Virus record (IMG/VR): IMGVR_UViG_3300044729_001198
Span: 122,632 to 186,631 of that record
Source: a virus
Direction: 5' to 3' (one strand)
Length of the DNA stretch: 64,000 nt
Positions 8,899 through 64,000 of this stretch are shown in pieces; the first letter of the stretch is position 1, and every line of letters begins with the position of its first letter. The notes beneath the pieces are model-generated. The model worked only from the letters and a program-made list of their open reading frames with translations. It ran no database searches and was not told the DNA's origin. The translations under genes were made by a program, and so were the position numbers.

Positions 8899-10313
8899 GC
8901 TTTATAAATATCAAATCGTTTACGAGGTTTCCAATTTTGGAAACAATCTTCAAATGCTTCGATGAACTTGTCACCCATTGTTTCGGATGCCATATCACCA
9001 TCACCAACAACCCACTCATGACCACGTTGACCATAAATTTCTAACCTATCTCTACCATATGAAAATGTAAGGTTTAGAGCGTTAGCTACATCATGAAAAT
9101 CACATCGGTCATCAAAGATATACGGAGTCATCGGCGAACCCTGCAATGACCTGTTACTTGGCCAGACAGGAAAAGCCCACACACCATAAGATATGTCATC
9201 CGAATTCGACCACTCTCTATGGTTGTGTAGAGACCCGATTTCTACATAATCTTCGGCTGTTATTTGTTTACCAAACAATTCAAAACCACATTGGTCTTGT
9301 AGTCCACCGGTGACATTAACAATGATTGGAGTTCCGGCTCGTAGAGCTTCACATGAAGCCAATCCAAATCCTTCGTTAGAACCAATATTAAGAATAATAT
9401 CACCTGAATTATAATATAGATTTAATTCTTGGGTTGTCATTGGTCCGTTTGTGAATTTGTAATCACCAAACTTACCATTCCATTTGATTACTTCAGGAAT
9501 ATCAGTTCCATGTTCCGATACTTGTTCGGAGTGTATGAACAAACATACCTTTTTATCTTGATTCGTTTCGGCAAATTCATTAAATGCAAGAATTACATCT
9601 CCTGGAGATTTTCTACGAATGTTTCTATTGTTCCAAAGAACTACAAAGTCATATTTGTCAAGGTCGTATTTTTTCTTGAATTCAATCAACGATGTGTCAT
9701 CACTTGGAACTGGCTTGAACATTTTAGAAACACCATGTGGAATATACTTGTATGCCCAATCTTCTTTAGGCATTCCATACTTTTCCAATACACGTTTGTT
9801 GATACCATAGGTTTGTTTTGATATTGAAATCAATTGGTCACAACTTGCATAAAACGGAGCGTTCCACATTGGGTCTGGCAAATCATCCCAAATGTTGTAG
9901 TAAATAATTGGTACAAATTGTCTTAACTCAAGCTCCATGTCATACAACCACCCCCAAAAACGTGGGTCAGTAAAGTGCATGATGGCGTCGGGCTTTTCAA
10001 TGTTGATTAGTTCTCTGATAACTTCAGGACTACCATATCCGGTATGAGCATAAATTTTAACACTACCATCTTCGATTCCGGCTTCTTTACAAGCATCTTC
10101 AGAAACATCAAATACCTTACCATGGTCTGGATGTTTTAAAGCAGCTCCCAACTGAACCCAATCATACTTGTGTAGACTTGAGATGACAATTTCTTTTGAT
10201 TGAGTGGCAATTCCACTATGTAGCCGTAGGTCGTCTGACAATAAAAGAATCTTCTTTTTCTTTTGACGATTCGGGTCTACCTTTTTAAGTTTAGGTAATT
10301 TTAATTCTTGCAT
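8895..10313 (-). CDS. GT-B glycosyltransferase (GT4)
   Basis: SGIA, IPHGV, NRNIRRK, NEGFGLASCEALRAGTPII. Confidence 0.85.
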   Translation of the reverse strand: MQELKLPKLKKVDPNRQKKKKILLLSDDLRLHSGIATQSKEIVISSLHKYDWVQLGAALKHPDHGKVFDVSEDACKEAGIEDGSVKIYAHTGYGSPEVIRELINIEKPDAIMHFTDPRFWGWLYDMELELRQFVPIIYYNIWDDLPDPMWNAPFYASCDQLISISKQTYGINKRVLEKYGMPKEDWAYKYIPHGVSKMFKPVPSDDTSLIEFKKKYDLDKYDFVVLWNNRNIRRKSPGDVILAFNEFAETNQDKKVCLFIHSEQVSEHGTDIPEVIKWNGKFGDYKFTNGPMTTQELNLYYNSGDIILNIGSNEGFGLASCEALRAGTPIIVNVTGGLQDQCGFELFGKQITAEDYVEIGSLHNHREWSNSDDISYGVWAFPVWPSNRSLQGSPMTPYIFDDRCDFHDVANALNLTFSYGRDRLEIYGQRGHEWVVGDGDMASETMGDKFIEAFEDCFQNWKPRKRFDIYKA

Positions 10314-10329
10314 ATCGTAACTCTTTCTA

Positions 10330-10336
10330 ATAAATA
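10330..10336 (-). promoter_or_regulatory. Putative late motif TATTTAT upstream of the glycan island
   Basis: Same motif as upstream of the structural genes. Confidence 0.5.
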
Positions 10337-10344
10337 TAGAATTG

Positions 10345-10806
10345 TTATTGTATAAATGTTGCTTTTTTGTTGTTTCGTTCTAATACACGTTTAAAGTGAT
10401 TGAACTCACTTCTTGGAATTTCTCCAAAGTAAATAATCTTATCAGCATTCCAAACTATAGTGTCGTACTGATGTAATTTTTGTGTAGGATGAAATGGTTT
10501 TTCATAGTATTCATCGGTCATACCACTGTAAAGATTCATTGGAGTGTGTGCAGGATTGTATTCAATATACTTGATACCCATTTCCAAACTAAACTTTCTA
10601 ACGTGCTTTTCGATACCATTCTGATTACCCCTACTCATAATGATTAGGTCATCATTATATTTTTGTTTTAGTTTAAATAGCATTTCTTTTAGTTCACCAC
10701 GAGTTTCGTATTTCTCGCTACCAATTAGTGCTACCTTCATACCCTTATCTTTCTTGAATCTATAGTTAATCTTCACCTTTACGGATGTTTTTGGTTTTCT
10801 TATCAT
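10345..10806 (-). CDS. SLOG superfamily protein (DUF2493/YspA-like)
   Basis: KVALIGS, IMSRGNQNGIE, IVWNADKIIYF. Confidence 0.6.
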   Translation of the reverse strand: MIRKPKTSVKVKINYRFKKDKGMKVALIGSEKYETRGELKEMLFKLKQKYNDDLIIMSRGNQNGIEKHVRKFSLEMGIKYIEYNPAHTPMNLYSGMTDEYYEKPFHPTQKLHQYDTIVWNADKIIYFGEIPRSEFNHFKRVLERNNKKATFIQ

Positions 10807-48562: not shown

Positions 48563-50896
48563 TTATGCCCCTGGGAACGTAGCGCCAGTTGGAAGAATGT
48601 TGAAATCGAGTACGATAAATTCAGCAGTCTTCGTAGGTTGTAAGTAAATTTCACCTACCATAATGTTTCTATCGATAACATCTGGTGTGTTGTTTGTGTC
48701 ATCCATCACCACTTTGAAAGCGTAAAGACCATTTCTTTGTTGGATTGATTCCAAGTATGGATTTACGATTGATAAGAAGCGATTTCTTGTAGCAGCGGTA
48801 TTTTGTTCGAATACCAAGTATCTTGTAGAGGATGCGATGTATTTCTTAACAGCAATTAACAATCTACGAACGTTAATTCTATCAAGAGCAGATGGTTTAG
48901 CTTGTAAGGTCTTTTGACCAAATACAGTAGCACCTTGTCCAGGGAATGTAGCGATTGGGTTGATACGACCTTCGTATAGTGAATCTCTTTCATCGTGAGT
49001 TAAACGAGTCTTAACTTCAATAACGTTTGTCAAACCACCACGATTCAAACCTGCGGGAGCGTACCACTCAGCACCAACTGAATCGTTGAAAGCAATAACA
49101 CCAGGAAGAACAACACTTGGTGGAACCCAGACTGGCTTATTCTTGTCAGTATCAAGGATTTTAACCCAAGGGTGGTAAGTAGCAACATAATTCGAGTCAA
49201 ATGAAGTCAACGTGTTTACAGCAGTAGCGATTGTATCACCATAAGCAGCCGTATCCATCACAAAGAAACAATCTTGTCTATCTTCACACATATCCTTAGC
49301 GTATGTAGTAACTGAAGAGTGTAATCTATGTAACAAACCTGGAATAACAACCATGTTAATATCAAATTCATCAGGGTTTGAAATTGCGTTGATAGCTTTT
49401 CTCAAAGCAACAGTACCACTAGCAGTAGCAGATGAACAATCCAAACCTTGAGTGTTTCCAGCAACAATATTAGTTCCGGTGTAAACTACTCGGTTTGGCT
49501 CCCATCCATCAAAACCACCTTGGAAAGGTACGATGAATTTTTTGTAATCAATATTACTTGTTAACGATACAGTACCTGAACCTGATTGACAAGTTGCCAA
49601 ATCAAATGCATTACCAACCACCTCGGTATTAGCATCCGGAGTTGGATTCAAGAAGTTTAAGTTATCAGTTGTAGCGAAATCAAATGAGTAACCAAAGAAC
49701 ACTTTAGAGTTGTAAACACTATCCAAAGATTGTGTAGTTACATAAGTTGGTTCTGGTAAAGTATAACCACTATGAAGTGGTGATGTTACAGCAGCAAATC
49801 CAAATGGAACTAAAGTTGAATCAACAGCACCATTTTTAACATCATCAGCAACTTCAACACGAATGTGAGCTGATGTGTTAGGATAATCACCATTGAATAC
49901 TAATTTACCTGTAGATTCTACAGTAACGTATCTATCACCAATAACTCTTGCGATGAAATTTGGAGAGTTCGGGTCAAGGTTAACATTTGTAAATTCTTCT
50001 ACAATATTAGGTCTAGCATCGGTATCTTGTACGTTTTGACCAAAGATAGAATAAGGAACTTTAGAAGTATCGACTCTACGAACTTGTACAGTGAATGTAC
50101 CAAATTCAGAACCTGGAACTTCAGAAGCAGGTTTGATGTCACGGATACCAATTTTGAATTCGTAGTTTGTAGCATTACCATGTGATAATGTATGGAACTT
50201 AAACAAGTTAGTAGCGACACCACCAACTTTTTGAGAAACGATATAAGGAGTAGATGCTTCGGAGTAAGCTTTAGTGTAATCGGTGTCGAATTGTACAACT
50301 GATACTTTTGCGTTCTCACCAGTAGCAAATGATTGTGACTGGAATGTTGAGAAGTTTAAGTAAGTGTAAGCAACTTTAGATGACTTTGGAGCGAATCCAT
50401 AAAGTTTTGTAAAGTAGTTATCCGAGGTCGGATTCATAGAAGCTGAAGTAGCAGTTGAACTAACCAAACTACCAGTCAATGTCAAAACAAAAGCAGATGC
50501 ACTTGCAGCAGCATCAACACTTGATAAATCAAAGTCACCACCATTTGTGGTTGTAGTTGGGTGAAGTACAGCAGCAACCTTTACACCAGCTGAAGATGAA
50601 ACTACTAAAGCAATTGGTTTAGCAGTGTATCCATCAGCACCTAATACTCTAACGATAGTAGCATTAGAAGCGTCTTCTAAATATGATTGTGCGGTATACG
50701 GGAGGTATGAATCTTCAGTCAATCCTCCAAACTTTTGTTGGAATTCATTGAAAGACTCAACCTTCGTTGGTACGAAAGCAGGTCCCTTTATAGTTTGTCC
50801 TATAAGAGCTCCACCTATCTCAGCAATACCCGCAGGTAAGAACGAAAGGTCTTTTTCTCTTGTGAATACACCAGGACTTACAATTCTTTCAGCCAT
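48563..50896 (-). CDS. gp18: Tail sheath protein (gp18-like)
   Basis: SPGVFTRE.D, G...KGP, WYAPAG.NRG, FGQKTL, RINVRRL, P.K.AEFI.L.F. Confidence 0.95.
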   Translation of the reverse strand: MAERIVSPGVFTREKDLSFLPAGIAEIGGALIGQTIKGPAFVPTKVESFNEFQQKFGGLTEDSYLPYTAQSYLEDASNATIVRVLGADGYTAKPIALVVSSSAGVKVAAVLHPTTTTNGGDFDLSSVDAAASASAFVLTLTGSLVSSTATSASMNPTSDNYFTKLYGFAPKSSKVAYTYLNFSTFQSQSFATGENAKVSVVQFDTDYTKAYSEASTPYIVSQKVGGVATNLFKFHTLSHGNATNYEFKIGIRDIKPASEVPGSEFGTFTVQVRRVDTSKVPYSIFGQNVQDTDARPNIVEEFTNVNLDPNSPNFIARVIGDRYVTVESTGKLVFNGDYPNTSAHIRVEVADDVKNGAVDSTLVPFGFAAVTSPLHSGYTLPEPTYVTTQSLDSVYNSKVFFGYSFDFATTDNLNFLNPTPDANTEVVGNAFDLATCQSGSGTVSLTSNIDYKKFIVPFQGGFDGWEPNRVVYTGTNIVAGNTQGLDCSSATASGTVALRKAINAISNPDEFDINMVVIPGLLHRLHSSVTTYAKDMCEDRQDCFFVMDTAAYGDTIATAVNTLTSFDSNYVATYHPWVKILDTDKNKPVWVPPSVVLPGVIAFNDSVGAEWYAPAGLNRGGLTNVIEVKTRLTHDERDSLYEGRINPIATFPGQGATVFGQKTLQAKPSALDRINVRRLLIAVKKYIASSTRYLVFEQNTAATRNRFLSIVNPYLESIQQRNGLYAFKVVMDDTNNTPDVIDRNIMVGEIYLQPTKTAEFIVLDFNILPTGATFPGA

Positions 50897-52634: not shown

Positions 52635-53798
52635 TTATCCTATATAAATTGCTCTTGGAACTCTAGCAAGTGTTGATTCTAAAAATTCAGCCTCATCACG
52701 TTTTGCTTCCATTAATGCTCTTTTTGAAACGGCTTCCAAAGTTTCTTTTAACTCGGTTAATAGATTTTCTTTTTCAGTAGAAGCCTCACCTCTTAAATCA
52801 GCACCATCTAAAGTAACATCAGCCCCAGGAATTGGAATAGCGGAGAATTTAGCTCTAACAGCACCCAACATTTCTTTAGCCAATGCTAATGTGTATTTAG
52901 TAATCCATTGTCTACCAGCAGCGTTAATATCTGAATATAACAATCTCAAGAACGGAGCGTTTGATAAATCACTAACAACATTTGATGCCATTGCAGGATT
53001 ATTACCTTCACTATTTCGTGTATATTCAAAGTACACTTTTGTTCCAGTATCAGTTGATGTTGGTAATGGGAAAATCTTAATACGATTATTAACTAATTGG
53101 AATGAGTATTGTGATTTACGAATTTGGTCATTAAATTCAATTGCTTGTAAACGAAGTAAATCATCATACATCGGTTGCATCATAAACGATACGCCTGGTG
53201 AGTAATTACCCCATCCAAAAGTCTCCATCATTTGTTGTGAACCAAGACCAGTTCCGACAAATGGGTCAAAATAACGAGTAATTGCAGGAGGCGCCTCATG
53301 AAACACCTTACGGATTGTAAGACCATCGGAAACTGAACCAGATTCAAGTGATACTACACTTGCATTCTTTAAATCATAAATTTGTTCACCACCAACTAAC
53401 GTAAATGAACCTGTATAGTATGTTAATCTACCACCACTCTTTGCTTCAGTACCATAATCTTTTGCGATATTCACAACAGAACTCAAATTAGAATTAAGTT
53501 GTGTATTTCGTAAGTCAGCTGAAATGTTTGACCCTTGTAGTGAGAGCATACTTTCTCTCGTTCTATATAGGTTAACTTGTGATGAGTATTCATTGGTAGC
53601 TTCTTCAAAACAAGCAAAAAAGTTTATATCTTGTAATTCAATATCAACGATGGGATATCCCAGTCGTTTTGCGCACCACCCAGCCACCTTTGGAGCATCT
53701 GACCTGAATTGTGAATCAGAATCAAAAAATCCGAAAGGAGTGGAACTTCCACTTGTGAATGTCGCTGCGCCTGTCCAAATTGGTATGTTAACTGCCAT
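52635..53798 (-). CDS. Neck/head-tail adaptor (gp13-like)
   Basis: RLGYP..DIEL, WI..YTLAL.KE.LG..R.KF..IP.PG..VTLDG. Confidence 0.75.
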   Translation of the reverse strand: MAVNIPIWTGAATFTSGSSTPFGFFDSDSQFRSDAPKVAGWCAKRLGYPIVDIELQDINFFACFEEATNEYSSQVNLYRTRESMLSLQGSNISADLRNTQLNSNLSSVVNIAKDYGTEAKSGGRLTYYTGSFTLVGGEQIYDLKNASVVSLESGSVSDGLTIRKVFHEAPPAITRYFDPFVGTGLGSQQMMETFGWGNYSPGVSFMMQPMYDDLLRLQAIEFNDQIRKSQYSFQLVNNRIKIFPLPTSTDTGTKVYFEYTRNSEGNNPAMASNVVSDLSNAPFLRLLYSDINAAGRQWITKYTLALAKEMLGAVRAKFSAIPIPGADVTLDGADLRGEASTEKENLLTELKETLEAVSKRALMEAKRDEAEFLESTLARVPRAIYIG

Positions 53799-53845: not shown

Positions 53846-56212
53846 CTATCTTTCACTATTTTTCATAAAAGATACGATAATATAACGAGTTCCGTTTGTT
53901 ACGGCTCTAGCACCATGTTTGTGAGTTATGTTTCCAGGGTGTATAGTACAATATCCAATTGGTGATTTTACTAATTGTTTTTGTCTTCTAAACCAAGTAC
54001 CACCACCATCATATTCGTCTAAATCTGAAAGTTGTACAAGACAAGTTATGTCGGATGAGTCGTGGTGTATAGACAAGTGTCCTTGTGCATTTGGGGTATA
54101 TTTAGCCAAAAAGTTTTCAGATTGCATAGAAGTCCAACCCCGACCCTCAAGGGCCCAAATGTAAGTCGAAAACTTCATAACATATTCACGGAGAACATCC
54201 ATATAAATGTCATTCATGTCAATCACATTTAATAACATATCGGTTGTTGGGTAATTTTCATGCCTATCAACAGTCCAAGAATTAGCGTATTCGGCCTCTT
54301 CACGAATCATTCTACAAAACTCTTCAGTAAACAATGGAAATGTAAAACAATTATCAAATGGTTCATCGGTTATCAAATCCCATTCTTGTGTTCTAGCGGA
54401 ATATGATATAAATCTATTTTTCCATTCAATTGGGTTTTCATAATAAGTGTAAAGTTCGGGATGTAATTTCATGTTTAAATGAATAGTTTCGGTTGTAGAT
54501 TTTATTTGACTATGACCTTGACTTATTAATTGTGTTCTTAATGAGTAAGCATTTACATCTGACTCAATAGAGTTTAAATCATTTCGATTTGGATGTATTG
54601 AATATGTACATATGAAAAATTCATCTAATGGTATAATATTGTTTTGTAAGTTTTTACTCAACATTTTTTCTATACCATTTTTACTCAACATATAAGCATG
54701 GGTGTTGTAAGATGGATATGGTTTTACAATTTCACCCAAACCGATTTCAACATCATCTCCCGGTGACAATTTATTTCTACCAAGATACATCAAGTCCCAA
54801 TCGGATGGTAGGTCATCTATGATATATGGGGATAACTGACCATGAACCATGAAGTCCTCTTCAAGAACCAATATATTTTCATGACCACTTTCTTTTGCAA
54901 GATTCCAAACTTGGAGATGTGATAAAGCACAACCAATCTCTCCGGGCAGAATAGGTCTATTATACCATTTATTTGTAGATTCTATTTTCCAATTGGTAAA
55001 TACTGACCAATCTCCATCGTAAATATTTAAATTACTACCATCAACTGCTCTATGAATATGAATAACGCTTCGAGGGTCTAATCCTAATTTATTAATTTCA
55101 GAAACCCACCTATCGTAGTTATTAAAATTCTCGGATAACCCAATCACATATACACAATCTATTTTGGTGTATCGCTTTGGTTCATCTATCACACTATACC
55201 ACTCATTAACACGAACATCCCATGTATTTTTTAAAGCATATTCTCTTGCGTTTTTTAAATTGGTTTGTTGTAGTGATTTGTTATTGTGTAAATCCACAAA
55301 TGCTTCAAAAAACTCATTATTTGATGCATTATGACTTACAAGTTTAGCTTTACCATTTAATAGATTCAAAAGATTACCGGAATCAGTTGATACTATTTTT
55401 ACACCACCAAACATCATTTCAAGAGCAGTTATACAATAGGTTTCTTCATACTGACTTGGATATAACCAATATTCAGCCGAATTTATCAAATTGTATAATT
55501 CCATTTTCCCCAAAGCGCCAATAAAATGAACCCCTTCTAAAACTTGTTGATAAGAGTCATAAACATCCAATGCATATGGTGGGGTTGCTACCCATAAGGT
55601 AGCGTCTGGTAACATATTCTTTATGTTTGGCCAGATTTCTAATAGATTTGACAAACCACGTTCAGCTGATGATGTATACACAAACTTATTTGGGACTTTA
55701 TCAACCGAATTCATTAAAAAATCAGTCGTTGATATTGCGTTTGGTATTACACGAATACGACCTCTCATTTGTGGATATTTTTTTTCTAAAATGGCGGCCT
55801 GATATTCAGATACACAAATGAAGTTAGTTATTTCTAAACTTGATAAGTAGCCCAACCCATCATTCTCTAAAGTAACACCATTCCACCATGGATAAAAGTC
55901 AAGATTATGTAACCAAAAATATGATTTATCAAAGGTTATATTTCTTGATTTCAATTCTACTAAATAGTGTATATAATTTGTGGCAATTACAACATCGTAT
56001 TGTGAATTTGATTCCAATTCGCTGTATTCACAATATTTGACATTATCTATTGTAGAACTTATAAGGTCACCACATATGGTAACGTCATGGGAACGTGCCA
56101 TAATTTCTGCAAGTTTCATTACAGCATATTCCGACCCACCGATACCATTTTCGTACCAAGTGTTCCAATTCCATTTTTCTTTTTGATATCCTACTACAAA
56201 TAATATTTTCAT
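53846..56212 (-). CDS. Tri-domain enzyme: GT4 + GT25 (COLGALT-like) + PLOD-like 2OG-Fe(II) lysyl hydroxylase
   Basis: GIGGSE, YTSS..RGL, ET.CI.A.E (GT4); AVDG, GEIGCALSH, VLEED, WDLMYLGR (GT25); FPLFTE, YPT.D, HHDSS, GGGT.F, HPG..TH.H, GTRYI.VSF (LH). Confidence 0.85.
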   Translation of the reverse strand: MKILFVVGYQKEKWNWNTWYENGIGGSEYAVMKLAEIMARSHDVTICGDLISSTIDNVKYCEYSELESNSQYDVVIATNYIHYLVELKSRNITFDKSYFWLHNLDFYPWWNGVTLENDGLGYLSSLEITNFICVSEYQAAILEKKYPQMRGRIRVIPNAISTTDFLMNSVDKVPNKFVYTSSAERGLSNLLEIWPNIKNMLPDATLWVATPPYALDVYDSYQQVLEGVHFIGALGKMELYNLINSAEYWLYPSQYEETYCITALEMMFGGVKIVSTDSGNLLNLLNGKAKLVSHNASNNEFFEAFVDLHNNKSLQQTNLKNAREYALKNTWDVRVNEWYSVIDEPKRYTKIDCVYVIGLSENFNNYDRWVSEINKLGLDPRSVIHIHRAVDGSNLNIYDGDWSVFTNWKIESTNKWYNRPILPGEIGCALSHLQVWNLAKESGHENILVLEEDFMVHGQLSPYIIDDLPSDWDLMYLGRNKLSPGDDVEIGLGEIVKPYPSYNTHAYMLSKNGIEKMLSKNLQNNIIPLDEFFICTYSIHPNRNDLNSIESDVNAYSLRTQLISQGHSQIKSTTETIHLNMKLHPELYTYYENPIEWKNRFISYSARTQEWDLITDEPFDNCFTFPLFTEEFCRMIREEAEYANSWTVDRHENYPTTDMLLNVIDMNDIYMDVLREYVMKFSTYIWALEGRGWTSMQSENFLAKYTPNAQGHLSIHHDSSDITCLVQLSDLDEYDGGGTWFRRQKQLVKSPIGYCTIHPGNITHKHGARAVTNGTRYIIVSFMKNSER

Positions 56213-56213
56213 G

Positions 56214-57506
56214 CTATTTCACTATGTAATTTAAAACTTGTTCACTCTCACCAAATTTTGTATAATCCATATCATCTTGAAATTTCCAAGAATGGCCATC
56301 GGACTCATTCCAACACCAATCATCTTTTCCAAGCTCAAGGATTCGTTGATGAATAAATGGGTCGTAATAATCTTTTATTAATCTAGCCCTACGATTAATA
56401 TCGGTTGAATTATTATCTACTGTCGAATCACCATTATTATATTGTACATATAACATTTTTTTAAGGTGAATTATTCTTGTATGTAAAAATGTCTTTACAA
56501 TTAATTCAAAATCATCAGCTACCGAAATATCTCTACTATGTCCTCTGATTTCTGAATATGTATCTCGTCTCCAAATACGGCAATGGTTTGGCATACCAAT
56601 ATTGAATCGTATTGATTTCGGATTTATATCAGGATAATGGTGTACCAACCAATCTTGACCATCAATATTTTGCCATGTGTGTCCTGCATAACCCCAATCA
56701 AATTTATTTTCCGGATGACCATACCAATCGTCACCTATATAACCATATTGACGTGGTGCTCCATTTTCATAAACCTCGGTTACATCCGTATATATAAATC
56801 CAGCATCTTCATGTTGCCATGAGGCATGTAATACTTCTTGTAAACAAGTTGTTATCAAAGTGTCATCATGGTCAAGTTCTACTAACCACTCACCATTACA
56901 TAACATGGCAGCTCTATGTTTAACCTCACCAACATTACCACCACTATTTGGTGACATTCTATATGGTTTTACTCTATAATCTTCGTCAGCTATAGTTTTT
57001 AGATATTCCCACGTTTTATAATCACCTTCAGGTGAATCATCAACGACCACCCATTCCCAATTTGGATACGTTTGGTTTTTTAAAGATTCATATGTTCTGA
57101 ATATACGTTCGTTGGTTTTGTACGTTGGTGTGAAGATTGAGAATATAGGCGTTTCTCTATTTCCAAATACTTCTTTTTGAGACCTACAAGCCCAAAACGT
57201 TGATTGACATACAATATCATTTGCAAGAACATTGTCAGCTGGAATTTCAGTATATGTAAAAACTTTTGACATCACAAATGTATGGCTGGTGAATTGATAA
57301 ACTTGTCCATTTCCCGGCCCAATTAATATAATGATGTCCGGCTTATGTTTAGCAAAATCTGATTTAAAATTACAAGCACAATCGTATGAATATATTTTTA
57401 CAAATTCATATAAATTTTCTTCGTGATATACATCAGATTTTAGTGTTATCTCACCAAATCTATTCCAACCATAAACCAAAGCAGTTGGCAAACTCGTTTT
57501 TCTCAT
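56214..57506 (-). CDS. GT2 glycosyltransferase with N-terminal extension
   Basis: FSIFTPTY, WVVVDDS, VELDHDD, ADDFEL; start set to MRKTS. Confidence 0.82.
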   Translation of the reverse strand: MRKTSLPTALVYGWNRFGEITLKSDVYHEENLYEFVKIYSYDCACNFKSDFAKHKPDIIILIGPGNGQVYQFTSHTFVMSKVFTYTEIPADNVLANDIVCQSTFWACRSQKEVFGNRETPIFSIFTPTYKTNERIFRTYESLKNQTYPNWEWVVVDDSPEGDYKTWEYLKTIADEDYRVKPYRMSPNSGGNVGEVKHRAAMLCNGEWLVELDHDDTLITTCLQEVLHASWQHEDAGFIYTDVTEVYENGAPRQYGYIGDDWYGHPENKFDWGYAGHTWQNIDGQDWLVHHYPDINPKSIRFNIGMPNHCRIWRRDTYSEIRGHSRDISVADDFELIVKTFLHTRIIHLKKMLYVQYNNGDSTVDNNSTDINRRARLIKDYYDPFIHQRILELGKDDWCWNESDGHSWKFQDDMDYTKFGESEQVLNYIVK

Positions 57507-57507
57507 A

Positions 57508-58113
57508 TTATCTATATGGTTCTCCACCAACCCAAAGTACAAATGATTTACGAGTACCTTTAGTTACGGGTTTGACTCTATGTAAATAAAAAGATGGGAA
57601 TATCACAACAACACCCTTACCCCTTGGAGCTTGAGTGGCTCCAGCTCCCAACATAAATTCTAAATCACCACCCTCATACTCATCTGGACCTGAAAGTTGA
57701 ACTGTTACTGATACTTTTCTTTGATTCTGAATTCCAATACCACAATCCATGTGCCAATCGTAGTGACCACCACCTTCGTAATATTCGGTATATTGAATCC
57801 GTTCTCGCATATGAGTCAAATCAAGTTTCCACATAAATTGATTTGCTTCAGAAATCATATTATGTAATTTAGAATACACCCATTCCCACTTTTCATTTTG
57901 TGGACACCATTTTACTGATGATTTTCGATAAGTCTCATTCTTTCGGCTAACGTTGTCTTGACCAATAGCAGCTTCTTCAAACTTTAAATCTGAAGTCAAT
58001 TCTTCGATGGTCTTCAACTCTTCAGGTGTAAACCCTTCGTGAAACCAATAATAATTTGTGTAATTCACATCCAAACGATGTGGGTCTCGGTCAAATTTAA
58101 ATCCATTTTCCAT
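57508..58113 (-). CDS. 2OG-Fe(II) dioxygenase (prolyl-hydroxylase-like)
   Basis: YDWHMD, RK.S..VQLS....YEGG.L, FPSF..HRV.PVT.G.R.S.V.W. Confidence 0.88.
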   Translation of the reverse strand: MENGFKFDRDPHRLDVNYTNYYWFHEGFTPEELKTIEELTSDLKFEEAAIGQDNVSRKNETYRKSSVKWCPQNEKWEWVYSKLHNMISEANQFMWKLDLTHMRERIQYTEYYEGGGHYDWHMDCGIGIQNQRKVSVTVQLSGPDEYEGGDLEFMLGAGATQAPRGKGVVVIFPSFYLHRVKPVTKGTRKSFVLWVGGEPYR

Positions 58114-58153: not shown

Positions 58154-61100
58154 TTAGAACAAATATTTGTAAGTTTCTACAATCCAAACACGGTCACCAT
58201 TTACCCAACCATGTTTTTTGAATGTTAATTTTTGTAAAGAATTATCCCACTCAAAATAACCACCAGCAAGTTCATTACCCTTATCGCCTTTTGCATTTGT
58301 ACCACCTTGAGCGCCTTGGTTACCTTGACCCCCAACAGCACCATCATACGTTCCTTCAGGAGCAGCGGGAGCGGAACTTCCTTGAGCTCCAGTAATACCC
58401 TTTACACCTTGAGCTCCTTGAGCGCCAGTAGCACCAGCAGCACCTTGAGCACCTTGGTGACCTGTATTTCCCTTTGTACCTTGAGCGCCTTGAGGACCAG
58501 TAGCACCAGCAGCACCTTGAGCGCCTTGGTTACCCTTTGTACCAACAGCACCTTGAGCACCTTGAGCGCCGGTAGCACCTGCGGAACCCTGAGCTCCTTG
58601 AGCACCAGTAGCTCCTTGAGCTCCTTGAGCGCCAGTAGCACCAACAGCACCCTGAGCGCCTTGGTTACCCTTTGTACCAACAGCACCTTGAGCACCTTGA
58701 GCGCCGGTAGCGCCCGCAGCACCTTGAGCGCCGGTAGCGCCCTTTGAACCAGTAGCACCTTGAGCCCCTTTTGTTCCATGGATACCGTTAGGAGTTTCAG
58801 TTATGGATAGGCCTGTGAAATATCTCCAAGCGCCGGTTGTTCCTGATGGAGCATATCCAACGTACCAATGATGTTCTCCGGTTGCGTCTGCTGTGGACGT
58901 AAATGAATATTTCTTTCTATACCATGTTAGTGTAGTACCAAGTTCGGATGAATATAAATCTTTTTGGTCTATAATTGTTCCATCTTCTACACCAGTAGAA
59001 AAGTGACCACCACCACTAGCAAATTGCCTCATGTGGAACATACCATAATTTGCACCACTACCAGCCCAGTTTACATCGTAAGCTACCCAAATTTCAAGGG
59101 TATATGCAGTAGATGGTTTTACAAAAAATTCAGTAACTTGATATTCAGCAGCACCAGAGCTATCTTGTCGAAGTACATAAGCAGAATTAGCCGATTGTGG
59201 ATTATTAGATAATCCAAATGCTTGAGTAGTAGCATTATGACCCGTATAATACAAGTCTATATTGTTAGCAGCACCAATTGCAGCAAAGTTAGGGTCTAAC
59301 ACTTTATTACCAGCATAACCTTGAGCACCTTGAGCACCTTGGTTACCGGTGTTTCCTTTAGGACCTGTAGCACCTGCGGCTCCTTGAGACCCCTGATTAC
59401 CTTGTGCTCCAACATTTCCGGTTGAACCAATACCACCACCTGAACCAATAAGTCCGGTAGCCCCTTGAGCACCTTGTGAGCCGGTAGCCCCTTGAGCCCC
59501 AGTAGCACCTGCGGCTCCTTGAGCACCCGTAACTCCAGTAGCACCCGTATTTCCTTTTGGTCCAGTAGCACCTGCGGCCCCTTGAGAACCAGTAGCACCC
59601 TGACCCCCACCTACACCTGTATTTCCTTTAGCACCCGTAGCACCAGCAGCTCCTTGAGAACCAGTAGCACCTTGAGAACCTTGAACACCCTTGTTTCCTT
59701 TAGCACCAGCAGCACCACCACCACCACAATAGAAATCTAAATAGGTGTTATTATTTGATGTACCATATGTAGCATTATCACACGTTAAATTTGTAAGAAC
59801 AATTGTGAATCGCTGATTACCTGAATCATATGTATTGGATACAACTTGGAATTCACCAAATGCTGGGTCTGGAAATCCTTGACCAATATCAAGTCTACAT
59901 CCATTATTTACCGTGATTAAATATGAATATCTATCCGTACTGGTAAACCAAGAATATCTACTAACAACTATAGTAGTTAGTGAACATGAATTTGTGTTAT
60001 TAAATGATATTTGACCAGTACCAACCGCACCGGAAGTTGCTTGCCAATAAGTTGATAAGGTAGTTGGTGTTGTTCCCGGAGCACCTTGAGCACCGGTAAT
60101 TCCTTTAGGGCCCGTAGCACCTGCCGCTCCTTGAGACCCCTGATTACCTTGTGCTCCAATGGTTCCAGTAGGACCAACTCCCCCACCCGAACCAATAAGT
60201 CCGGTAGCACCTTGAGAACCTTGTGGGCCGGTGGCTCCTTGTGGACCAGTAGCACCAGCAGAACCTTGTGAACCGGTAGCTCCTTGTGGGCCGGTAGAAC
60301 CCGTGTTTCCTTTAGGACCTGTAGCACCAGCAGCTCCTTGAGAACCTTGAACGCCAGTAGCACCTTTCGGACCTTGAGCGCCAGTAGCACCTGCCGCTCC
60401 TTGAGGACCTGCGTTACCTTGAGCACCTATAGCACCAGTAGCACCCGTATCACCACTTCCACCTAAAATACCTTTTGAACCTTGTGGACCTGTTGCTCCC
60501 GTACTTCCTTTTGAACCAGTATCACCAGTAGCGCCTTGTGGACCTTGAGGGCCGGTTGGGCCTTGAGGGCCAGTTGGGCCGGTTGGGCCTGTATTACCTT
60601 GAGAACCAATCGGACCTAATGCACCTGACCTACCAAGTTCAGATGTATATTGATACCAAGTACCACCACCCGATTCAGATGGACGTTTCCAAAAGACTCT
60701 CATACCTTCACCACCACCATATTCTTGAGTTCTTACCAAAAATGAATAAGCAGTGCCAGCGGTTAATGAAATTGTACCTGTAGTTGTTCCCAATGCTGGA
60801 GTACCTCTACCACCATAAAATGATGCTACAATAGTTCCATTAATAAATAAATCAATTGAGTCATCGGATTCCGCTGTAAAAGTATATGTTCCGGTTTCGG
60901 ATGGTATAAACGTCCCCCAAGCTCTAACGGAAAAGAATTCACCTGAATTTGGAACACTTACCCCAGCACCAGTCAATGTAGTATAGGATGTCCAATCAAG
61001 AATTGTTGCGGCATTTACAATACCTTGTGAGTGTAATGTTGAATTTGTATATGCAGCATCGAAGAACTTACCAAAGTCATTTGAGTTTGTTGGATAAACA

Positions 61101-63622
61101 CCATATTGTGATGTAGAACCATTTCCGGCATGAGTTGACCATACTTGATAGTTTAAAGTAGCAGAACCAAACGCAGTACCCTTTTGACCTTGTGGGCCAG
61201 TACCACCTTGAGCACCCGTTGCGCCAGTAGCTCCTTGTGGGCCAGTAGCCCCTTGTGGGCCAGTAGCCCCTTGAGCTCCAGTAACACCAATATCTCCCTC
61301 TCCACCAGTAGTACCAACAGCACCTGTAGTTCCTTTTGCACCCGTACCACCTTGAGCGCCCGTTGAGCCGGTAGCACCTTGAGGGCCGGTAGCACCTTGA
61401 GGACCTTGAGGGCCAGTAGCTCCTTGAGGACCTGTAGCTCCTTTATTACCCTGTGGACCTTCACCACCTTGACCACCAGTAGCACCAGTAGTTCCTTTTG
61501 AACCAGTCCCACCTTGTGGACCTTGTGGGCCAGTTCCACCTTGTGGGCCGGTGGCACCTTGTGGGCCGGTGGCACCTGTAGAACCTTGAGCGCCGGTAGC
61601 ACCTGTTGGACCAGTACCACCTTGTGGACCTTGTGGACCAGTACCACCTTGAGCTCCGATAGCCCCTTGAGCTCCAGTAGCACCTTGTGGGCCAGTTGGC
61701 CCAGTACCACCCTGAACGCCTTGAGAACCTTGTGGGCCGGTAGCCCCCTGTGCTCCTTGAGCTCCTTGGTCACCAGTTATACCAATAGCACCATAATTGT
61801 TACACCACTTTACATCTTGTACAGCAGCATTACCTGAATAAAACGATGAATCTAAATAGAATGTTGCGCCAGCACCATGGTTTACACTTCGTCTGATAAC
61901 ACCATCTAAAATATAATGTACATACTGACCATCGTAGTATATAGCAAATGTAGTTACACCATTTGTGTATCCAAATGATAAATCGGTTACAAAGTTACAA
62001 CTCTCATAAATTTGAACACCACCACCGGCATATGGATACCATGCGTAATCTATAGAACAATAAGAAGCATCAGCAGCAGGGTCGGTATTTAAACCAACCA
62101 TTTTATATGTGTAGTTTGTAGATTTAAATTCTACATATGCGCCAGCGCCATATCCTAAATCAGAATATACACCACCACCCCAAGAACCAGCACCTTGTTT
62201 TGCAAATGATTGAACAGCTGTATTGTTGTTTGTTATTGCGACTGCTTGTCCGTTGTTAGTTGATGGATACGAACATCCCTCATATCCTTGTGGACCGGTA
62301 GCTCCTTGTGGACCAGTAGCGCCAGTACCACCTTGTGGACCGGTAGCACCAGTAGCACCTTGTAACCCCTCTCCACCGAAATCACCTTGTACGCCAGTTG
62401 GGCCTGTAGCACCGGTGGCGCCTTGTGGGCCTGTAGCACCTTGTGGGCCAGTAGGGCCTCCGTTACCACCAAATCCGGTGATACCTTTCGGACCTTGTAC
62501 ACCAATTTCACCTTGTGGTCCGGTTGCTCCAACTGCTCCGGCTGGACCCGTAGAACCACCACTACCTTTAGTACCCTTGAGACCAGCAGGCCCTAAAGCA
62601 CCTTGAGCACCAACAGCACCGGTTGGTCCCGGAGGTCCTCCAGAACCACCAACACCTACAGCACCTTGAGCTCCCTGCGGGCCGTTTGCTCCTTTTGGAC
62701 CAACAGCACCTTGAGAACCGCGTGAACCGGTTGGACCTGTAGAGCCGGTAGCACCCTTTGCGCCAGTAGCTCCAGTTGGACCAGTACCACCTTGTGGACC
62801 AGTACCACCTTGTGGGCCAGTAGGACCGGTATTACCCGTAATACCTTTTGAACCTTGAGGGCCGGTTGGACCTGTCGATGTATCAGGGTCACCACTTGGA
62901 CAAGCACCACAACCACCACCGAAACAAGATTGAACGTTACCATCGATATTACCACCGTTATTATAACCTGGAGGTATACCATCGAAACGGCCAAATTCTT
63001 GAACTTGATAGCAACATCCATCATCCATAGTGACAGCATCACCACAAGCACACCAATTGTCTATAGCATAATATTGAGCGGTAGAATTACTATCATATAC
63101 GTTTGAACAACCCGGGTCACATGCGTTTAATAGCCAATAACACGTTGAATTATGTACTATATATCCATTCAGTATATAAACGTCATCTGGTTCTATACCA
63201 ATTTTATGTAAGATTTCTGAATTAGTATCAGTATATGCGTCTTCGAGTAATTCTTCTGATAAAGAACCACTTTCATATTTTATTAGATAGTCACTACCTA
63301 CTTGTAAATCTTGTGATGATTTGAATCTATATGTGTTGGTAGAATCTTTTACAAGAATTTTTTTACCATATCCAACTGATAACGAGTCGTTGAATACCGC
63401 AAATTCTTCAGCAGTAGAACCACTTGTATTAAATACAACTGAAGCTGAAGTTATCTGAATTTCACTTAAAGAGGAACCTGTCCAATTTGTTGAAGATATT
63501 TCAGAAAAGTCAGTTCCAGATAAATGGACTGCTGTTACTAAAGTTCCTGTGGTAATGTTCTGAAGTTGTTCAGAACCACCACCCCATAAATTGACTAATT
63601 GATTCCCTTTAAATCCTGACAT
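58154..63622 (-). CDS. Giant collagen-like fibre protein with N-terminal Hint domain, Cys-rich segment and interspersed globular (PA14, lectin/CBM-like) domains
   Basis: Five G-X-Y blocks; PA14 F..R..G......G.YTF...SDD...L.I; Hint C-terminal block LNGYIVHN|S. Confidence 0.88.
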
Positions 63623-63635
63623 ATAACCTTTTTAA

Positions 63636-64000
63636 TTAGTATGCTGAACCACTTAAATACATATGAACCACATATGTGTTTCCACCATTGTTAAATGTTA
63701 AATACCCACGAGTTGCGTTCCACGAAAGTCCCGGAGATACACCACTAATCAAAGTACCAAGAGCAGCATCGCCCTTTTGACCTTTAGCACCTTGAGCGCC
63801 GGTAGCGCCGGTAGCACCTTGAGCTCCTTGAGCTCCAGTAAAGTTTGAACCAACAGCGCCTTGAGCTCCTTGAGGACCTACAGCACCTTGAGCACCTTGA
63901 GGTGAAGCACCTTGAGCGCCAGTAGCACCTTGAGCACCTTGAGCACCAACAGCACCTTGAGCGCCAGTAGGAGATGCTCCTTGAGCGCCAGTAGCACCTT
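63636..64000 (-). CDS. 3' end of a second collagen-like protein (partial)
   Basis: Manual translation [14 protein letters not shown]...[12 protein letters not shown]...[29 protein letters not shown]; stop at 63636-63638. Confidence 0.85.

Follow-up and report, generated by a model that had tools for sequence, protein, structure and literature searches.

A tailed-phage protein that joins GT4, GT25 and lysyl hydroxylase domains and lies downstream of collagen-like fibre genes

Why would a tailed phage carry, within a single gene, relatives of the enzymes that mature animal collagen? The question is raised by a protein of 788 amino acids (aa) encoded on the minus strand at 53846..56212 of the stretch analysed here, the last 64 kb of the 186,631-bp IMG/VR record IMGVR_UViG_3300044729_001198 (completeness estimate 98%; hereafter, the 64,000-nucleotide window). 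To our knowledge, hydroxylysine and its glycosylation are held to be hallmarks of animal collagens, mimivirus L230 being the sole exception. Reviews describe prokaryotic collagen-like proteins as mostly free of both modifications (PMC8968730). The phage protein comprises three complete domains, namely a GT4 glycosyltransferase (GT; aa 1-345), a GT25 glycosyltransferase (aa 346-575) and a lysyl hydroxylase (LH; aa 576-788). Judging from sequence, predicted fold and gene neighbourhood, we consider it a probable trifunctional enzyme that would mature the collagen-like fibres of the phage itself, a reading to which we assign a probability of about 0.75.

An earlier note, made from the DNA sequence alone, had described this frame as one polypeptide fusing GT4, GT25 and LH domains. 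The frame starts with ATG and has no internal stops, and sequence, profile and predicted-fold comparisons support all three assignments with matches that chance could not account for; the motifs quoted in that note (FPLFTEEFC, YPTTD, HHDSS, GGGTWF, HPGNITHKHG, GTRYIIVSF, AVDG, GEIGCALSH, VLEED, WDLMYLGR and IPLDEF) are all found in the translation. We aligned 34 three-domain homologues, ranging from about 40% to 90% identity, and used them to build an AlphaFold2 model of the whole protein (mean pLDDT 87.7). Foldseek comparison of this model, which the earlier note had suggested, matched human LH3 (3e-24), L230 (TM 0.88 on the target, root-mean-square deviation (rmsd) 2.2 Å), COLGALT1 (3e-15) and many retaining GT4 enzymes. 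In a second comparison of the model, with VIA, GT4 enzymes filled the matches listed, which gave no mapping of the GT25-LH portion onto the AC-LH portion of LH3. Among the 34 homologues, the active-site residues of each domain show little or no variation, and they correspond to residues that experiments found essential in LH3 and COLGALT1; their retention at 40-90% identity argues that all three domains are functional.

The protein's C-terminal portion (53846..54487, minus strand, including the stop codon) was assigned as a PLOD-type 2-oxoglutarate (2OG)/Fe(II) dioxygenase from phmmer, Foldseek and conservation. Against solved structures, aa 581-783 matched the LH domain of human LH3 (phmmer E = 9e-31) and mimivirus L230 (E = 1.8e-19), and the Foldseek superposition given above (TM 0.88) likewise identifies a double-stranded β-helix domain homologous to those of LH3 and L230. 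The iron triad, H716-x-D718 and H766, aligns with LH3 H667, D669 and H719, and the 2OG-binding R776, in the G-T-R-Y-I motif, aligns with LH3 R729; all four residues are invariant in the 34 homologues, as expected if the C-terminus follows the PLOD catalytic domain with its HxD motif, distal His and 2OG Arg in place. Pfam recognises the N-terminal part of the domain (aa 582-682) as OGFOD2-like. The earlier note had raised grouping with generic bacterial prolyl 4-hydroxylases (P4H) as part of what would speak against its reading; by sequence, LH3 and L230 were the sole solved structures matched, which places the domain with the PLOD/L230 type and not with generic P4H.

The middle of the protein (54488..55177, minus strand) is homologous to the catalytic GT2 domain of COLGALT1 according to phmmer, Pfam and Foldseek. 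It matched the COLGALT1 chains 9evj, 8zgc and 9u7h with E = 1.1e-13 in phmmer, and 9evj with 2.9e-15 in Foldseek, while Pfam family PF01755 (GT25) covers aa 357-460 (E = 1.6e-10; 41.6 bits vs. a cut-off of 24). In a residue-by-residue phmmer alignment, C428, E451, D453 and D530 correspond to COLGALT1 C412, E435, D437 and D522. In the human enzyme, E435 and D437 bind Mn as part of an EDD motif, Cys412 lies in the uridine pocket, and mutation of any of the four residues abolishes activity (PMC12003778). E451 is invariant in the 34 homologues, and C428, D453 and D530 are each at least 90% conserved. The proposal that the middle part follows the GT25 domain of COLGALT therefore stands, with the exception of one catalytic-cavity residue, Trp495, to which we return below. 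The GT1-like domain of the COLGALT1 architecture is absent, and the N-terminal neighbour of GT25 is instead GT4 (Pfam, VIA); thus, the protein is a member of GT25 and not a COLGALT orthologue.

The N-terminal part (55178..56212, minus strand) was assigned from Pfam, VIA and conservation as a complete GT-B fold of two Rossmann domains, with a G-G-S-E loop near the N-terminus and an E257-x7-E265 motif whose two Glu are invariant among the 34 homologues. Pfam families PF13692, PF00534 and PF13439 (Glyco_trans_1_4, Glycos_transf_1 and Glyco_transf_4) match within aa ~70-324, the first two above their cut-offs. When searched by sequence against the PDB, this domain alone gave only a weak match (E = 0.07), and the assignment was settled by fold comparison: in VIA, residues 1-346 superimposed on PimA with Z = 30.1 and an rmsd of 2.7 Å over 310 aligned residues, and Z scores of 26-29 were obtained for BshA, MshA, HepE and the α-1,2-glucosyltransferase tll1591. 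These results, with the three GT4-type Pfam families and the invariant E-x7-E motif, agree with the N-terminal GT4 domain of the earlier note.

What might such an enzyme act on? Upstream on the same strand lies a gene for a collagen-like fibre protein of 1822 aa (58154..63622, minus strand; Pfam Collagen 1.2e-96, PA14 1e-9), in which 297 G-X-Y triplets, arranged as five long blocks and a single short block, are interrupted by globular domains that include PA14. Lys occurs 27 times at Y and never at X, whereas Pro is found 59 times at X and twice at Y; Thr fills 103 of the 297 Y positions, and Thr and Gln together account for two thirds of them. Next to it is the 3′ end of a second collagen-like gene (63636..64000, minus strand), which would encode 1166 aa if the record is circular, Collagen matches being present at both record ends. 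This second fibre has 315 triplets, with eight Lys at Y, none at X, and Thr at 129 Y positions. Taken together, the two fibres have 612 triplets and 35 Lys, every one of them at Y. The Y position, as in X-Lys-Gly, is the target of collagen lysyl hydroxylases, and the collagen-like fibres are the predicted substrate of the 788-aa enzyme.

The same pairing was seen in related phages. For a neighbourhood test we took the 80 best loci among at least 399 IMG/VR relatives, of which 54 had at least 3 kb of upstream DNA; in 46 of these 54, a collagen-like open reading frame (ORF) on the same strand ended 41-1952 bp upstream of the enzyme gene. In the 11,939 triplets of the 38 unique ORFs from the 46 loci, Lys stands at Y 3487 times (29%) and at X 29 times. 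Control sequences were collected with a pattern that captures generic coding repeats of the G-X-Y type; it yielded 83 collagen-like ORFs from 80 viral loci with no LH domain within the locus, although these loci are short and an LH gene may lie elsewhere on the control contigs. The control collagens hold 205 Lys at Y (4.3%) and 74 at X in 4815 triplets. Collagens linked to an LH gene are therefore about sevenfold richer in Lys at Y than the controls, with almost no Lys at X. Directly upstream of some three-domain homologues (L083, L073-L079, L086 and L089) we also observed collagen-like ORFs of ~2000-2240 aa in which Lys takes up more than half of the Y positions (e.g. 248 in 434 triplets).

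The same arrangement is also present in two cultured, unrelated phages. In Synechococcus phage S-8S53, a tail fibre with 55 triplets and 24 Lys, all at Y, is followed by a small hypothetical gene, two small oxygenases and a 621-aa GT25-LH protein. In the Roseobacter podophage CRP-6, gp60 (99 triplets; 26 Lys, all at Y) is followed by gp59 and then by the 589-aa GT25-LH protein gp58. Around the GT25-LH gene and the tail assembly chaperone of S-8S53 lie more small genes for 2OG-Fe(II) and phytanoyl-CoA-type dioxygenases (L008:4728-5908, 9437-10686), which resemble the tandem dioxygenase arrays reported for cyanophage Syn9.

How the three domains might work together can be outlined as a model. 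We infer the enzyme activity, the identities of the sugars, the order of the steps and the fibres as acceptor, as follows. Acting in the cytoplasm of the infected cell, before the fibre chains fold into triple helices, the LH domain would use Fe(II), 2OG and O2 to convert Y-position Lys in G-X-K-G repeats to hydroxylysine. The GT25 domain, which would be an inverting, Mn-dependent GT-A enzyme like the GT2 domain of COLGALT1 and the glycosyltransferase of L230, would then transfer the first hexose to the new hydroxyl, and the GT4 domain, as a retaining GT-B enzyme, would most likely add a second, α-linked sugar. In relatives that lack GT25, the GT4 domain could alternatively glycosylate hydroxylysine directly. 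A GT2-family glycosyltransferase and a PKHD-type oxygenase encoded just upstream would probably make further modifications.

Several observations weigh against this model. COLGALT1 Trp495 lies in the catalytic cavity, and the W495A variant is inactive (PMC12003778); Asn503 takes its place in the phage protein, and Asn is also found there in almost every homologue, so that the GT25 domain may differ from COLGALT1 in donor, acceptor geometry or acceptor. Because GT4-LH forms without GT25 occur in relatives, GT25 is dispensable at this locus. The two fibres in the window are only moderately rich in Lys (9% and 2.5% of triplets), at the low end among LH-linked collagens. Lys prefers Y in the control collagens as well (73% of Lys), so that position alone is weak evidence, and the related loci in the neighbourhood test are non-independent samples. 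Finally, on two contigs of jumbo phages that encode the three-domain protein, the 10 kb around its gene contain no collagen gene.

Some of these points could be accommodated if LH hydroxylated fibre Lys while GT4, GT25 and GT2, or some of them, glycosylated other fibre sites, most likely Thr at Y, with the hydroxylysine left free or cross-linked. That collagen-like regions can be glycosylated on Thr is established (noted also in PMC8968730), examples being Bacillus BclA and the cuticle collagen of vent worms. In keeping with this reading, Thr is abundant at Y in both fibres of the window (103 of 297 and 129 of 315), GT4-LH forms exist that lack GT25, and the Trp495 of COLGALT1 is not conserved. 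However, control viral collagens with no such enzyme nearby are also Thr-rich at Y (1337 of 4815), no fewer than 52 of the best 150 clusters (50% identity) have GT25 joined directly to LH, and COLGALT1 and L230, the nearest characterised GT25 relatives, both act on hydroxylysine. We regard a Thr acceptor as unlikely, though worth keeping in mind. A different explanation would make the protein an enzyme of auxiliary metabolism or host takeover whose target is the host surface, whether the O-chain of lipopolysaccharide (LPS), the capsule or a protein of the host; blocking superinfection could be one purpose. Pelagimyophage glycosyltransferases encoded in the tail-fibre region have been read as LPS modifiers (PMC7029224), Pfam describes GT25 as an LPS biosynthesis family, PHROGs places the matching families in the class 'moron, auxiliary metabolic gene and host takeover', and the two jumbo-phage contigs without an adjacent collagen gene would fit. 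Yet hydroxylases of the PLOD type play no part in making LPS, and the gene is packed by 1-nt spacers behind the fibre genes, within a neck/tail module. Remodelling of the host would also leave unexplained the co-occurrence with Y-Lys collagen genes in 46 of 54 loci, and the full-length form is almost absent from prokaryotes (one match in 185,579 species genomes). This makes a host-surface role very improbable.

It is just as hard to credit that the LH-like domain has a different target (e.g. Pro, Asn, Asp, free lysine or a small molecule) and that its link to collagen reflects general hitch-hiking with fibre genes. Enzymes of the 2OG oxygenase class switch substrates readily, the Pfam label for the N-terminal part of the domain is 'OGFOD2-like', and cyanophages encode many 2OG oxygenases of unknown substrate (PMC2938197). 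On the other hand, the only solved relatives by sequence, LH3 and L230 (9e-31 and 1.8e-19), are both lysyl hydroxylases, and the neighbouring collagens show the ~sevenfold enrichment of Lys at Y with almost none at X. Hydroxylation of Y-position Lys in the phage's own fibres, followed by glycosylation of the hydroxylysine, thus remains the reading that we prefer.

We examined how widely the domain combination is distributed. A word-indexed search found 361 relatives, the best 120 of which comprised 41 GT4-GT25-LH proteins, 78 GT4-LH proteins of ~558 aa and one GT25-LH protein. In close relatives the 558-aa GT4-LH protein fills the same slot, in the order collagen repeats, 200-aa oxygenase, 432-aa GT2, GT4-LH, gp13, gp15 and 777-aa sheath. 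In one such relative (L005:1-8100), the upstream collagen region is split into short called genes with tandem repeats of 411-441 bp, which could be assembly errors or genuine frame breaks. Clustered at 50% identity, the relatives found in an exhaustive search with the LH domain form 2243 clusters, of which 85 scored below 1e-30; the best 150 divide into 24 GT4-GT25-LH, 28 GT25-LH and 4 GT4-LH, and in the other 94 LH stands alone or follows a different N-terminus. The animal PLODs retrieved, Lingula PLOD1 and one from a cestode, stand near the bottom of these 150, at 34-35% identity. A diverse alignment of LH-only proteins was also tried as a seed for the locus search and was set aside as too divergent. 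On a 322-kb jumbo-phage contig, a gene for a 962-aa Peptidase_M9 protein (microbial collagenase; L002:15011-17899) lies 2.5 kb downstream of a GT4-GT25-LH homologue, and the nearest 10 kb hold no collagen gene.

Trees were built from the LH domain only. In a maximum-likelihood tree the three-domain forms make up a paraphyletic, basal group within which the GT4-LH forms are nested, a pattern that under midpoint rooting suggests that GT25 was lost two or three times. A broader FastTree phylogeny separated one clade of animal and other eukaryotic sequences, together with metagenomic proteins of the L230 layout (825-1159 aa; N-terminal GT25, a 450-500-aa spacer, then LH), from a second, phage-type clade that holds every three-domain form and most compact forms; this tree leaves out L230 itself and, being unrooted, does not give the direction of transfer. 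A scan of prokaryotic genomes, one for each of 185,579 species and seeded with GT4-domain patterns, produced a single full-length three-domain match, which indicates that this form is essentially phage-borne. The match is on a 24-kb contig of a Flavobacteriaceae metagenome-assembled genome (MAG; PAUJ01000013.1), has 38% identity, and is preceded by a pair of collagen-like ORFs that together count 453 triplets and 87 Lys at Y; its enzyme frame appears to be interrupted. The contig probably belongs to a phage and was binned into the MAG, so that it offers a weak hint at the host.

Members of the family are named in databases as 'hypothetical protein', '2OG-Fe(II) oxygenase family protein' or 'glycosyltransferase involved in cell wall biosynthesis', and our literature search found no paper describing a phage-encoded lysyl hydroxylase. 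The sequence comparisons support well the view that the protein is an apparently undescribed variant of the viral LH/GT enzyme class, widespread in tailed phages.

The genes around the enzyme form a compact cassette on the minus strand that runs, from upstream to downstream, from the collagen-like and collagen/PA14 genes through a PKHD-type oxygenase, GT2 and the 788-aa enzyme to gp13, gp15, sheath and tube. The 201-aa oxygenase (57508..58113, minus strand), of the PiuC/YbiX-like branch of the P4H superfamily, is a 2OG-Fe(II) enzyme by Pfam (PF13640, 2.9e-14) and by its PDB match to PiuC (7.8e-10), with the NCBIfam family PRK05467 below cut-off. It is the sole PF13640 match in the genome and a candidate second hydroxylase. 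The GT2-family (GT-A) glycosyltransferase (56214..57506, minus strand) was identified by Pfam PF00535 (3.7e-16) and by PDB matches to chondroitin synthase and other GT2 enzymes. A mechanical ORF list starts it at a TTG at 57542, with a 35-nt overlap with the oxygenase gene; the ATG at 57506, 1 nt past the oxygenase stop, is the likelier start, because the resulting ~430 aa agree with a 432-aa syntenic homologue (L005/L006). Read directly, both junctions, from oxygenase stop to GT2 ATG and from GT2 stop to the ATG of the 788-aa gene, are spaced by 1 nt, and so we read the three enzymes as one unit. None of the three reached the cut-off of an NCBIfam family.

The first gene downstream encodes a gp13-like neck protein (52635..53798, minus strand), assigned from a match to a PHROG head-tail adaptor and from synteny: a 387-aa syntenic homologue matches PF26809 (Phage_T4_gp13), and the genes after it are gp15, sheath and gp19. 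This neighbour places the cassette inside the virion structural module. In T4 the genes immediately upstream of gp13 are wac and gp12, and by this analogy the collagen proteins may belong to the neck or baseplate and not to the long tail fibres. With T4-type gp23, the gp13-like neck protein, gp15, a 777-aa tail sheath (48563-50896) and gp19, the phage is a T4-like myovirus by gene set. The cyanophage marker psbA was sought in the genome and is absent. A megablast search with 12 kb around the locus gave no match among cultured phages; on this comparison the genome is without a close cultured relative. The closest match of the sheath is to Microcystis phage Mel-JY01 (57%), for which our literature search found no paper. 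The frame of the second collagen-like gene stays open for 1184 codons across the record end and start (window 63636-64000, minus strand, plus G000:C1:1-3190), which suggests that the record, labelled 'linear' in IMG/VR, is a complete circular or circularly permuted genome. The T4 late-promoter motif TATAAATA was found 11 times, vs. 7 expected, and the pair adjacent to the cassette (53828 and 58131) is on the plus strand, opposite the genes; the motif was therefore uninformative about timing.

What would follow if the enzyme is active as proposed? Already from its distribution, it defines a large unannotated phage family (at least 399 IMG/VR relatives) that is genomically tied to Lys-rich collagen fibres. 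If active, phage fibres would bear a post-translational modification that studies of host range and structure have overlooked, and the host-recognition glycosyltransferases of marine T4-like phages, now taken as LPS modifiers (PMC7029224), would need to be reread. The origin of PLOD and COLGALT would become testable with a far broader outgroup, and a compact enzyme that works in the bacterial cytoplasm would be of direct use where E. coli is to produce recombinant collagen with hydroxylation and glycosylation. The cultured phages S-8S53 and CRP-6 make the idea immediately testable. In its boldest form, the hypothesis would be that tailed phages run the full animal-like pathway, from Lys through hydroxylysine and hexosyl-hydroxylysine to dihexosyl-hydroxylysine, on their receptor-binding fibres with a single cytoplasmic polypeptide, that the phage LH/GT25 clade was the source of giant-virus and metazoan PLOD/COLGALT, and that glycosylated hydroxylysine is a widespread but unrecognised oceanic determinant of fibre stability or host recognition. 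We put this forward as speculation that could be right but that we would, on balance, bet against.

Among known systems, human COLGALT1 (GLT25D1) resembles the phage GT25 in its aligned catalytic GT2 domain, in which C412, E435, D437 and D522 are kept. In contrast to the phage protein, it has a structural GT1 domain with no phage counterpart, Trp495 in place of Asn, and an EDD rather than an EED motif; it also associates with LH3 non-covalently, whereas the phage GT25 is fused to LH. Human LH3 (PLOD3; GT-AC-LH) is similar to the phage protein in overall plan, with an N-terminal retaining GT, a central domain of GT-A fold and a C-terminal hydroxylase, the last being homologous and having the same Fe and 2OG ligands; Foldseek aligned ~490-500 columns of the two. 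However, the N-terminal GT of LH3 is GT-A while that of the phage protein is GT-B (GT4), the central AC domain of LH3 is non-catalytic while the phage central domain keeps the COLGALT1 catalytic residues, and LH3, unlike the phage enzyme, is a glycoprotein of the endoplasmic reticulum lumen. Closer at hand, the two-domain phage proteins, that is, the GT25-LH forms of S-8S53 (WLW37456) and CRP-6 (gp58) and the 558-aa GT4-LH forms, belong to the same LH clade and also lie behind collagen-like fibre genes with Lys at Y, but each lacks one GT domain, and they are annotated as '2OG-Fe(II) oxygenase family protein' or 'hypothetical protein'.

The nearest precedent is mimivirus L230 (PDB 6AX6), a GLT25D1-like GT fused to LH that was shown experimentally to hydroxylate collagen Lys and to add glucose (Luther et al., 2011, via PMC9614988). 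Like the phage protein, it is a viral single chain with a GT25-like GT (with an E-D-D motif in L230) and a C-terminal PLOD-type LH, and, according to the same source, it acts on mimivirus collagen-like proteins with Lys at Y, just as the phage protein is encoded near viral collagen genes. A fusion of GT25-like and LH domains is thus not unprecedented. L230, however, is a protein of 895 aa from a giant virus of amoebae, in which the GT is N-terminal and precedes LH by several hundred residues and there is no GT4; in the phage protein, GT25 sits directly against LH, GT4 has been added, and the setting is the bacterial cytoplasm. What is new relative to L230 is the tailed-phage setting, the GT4 domain and the compact layout.

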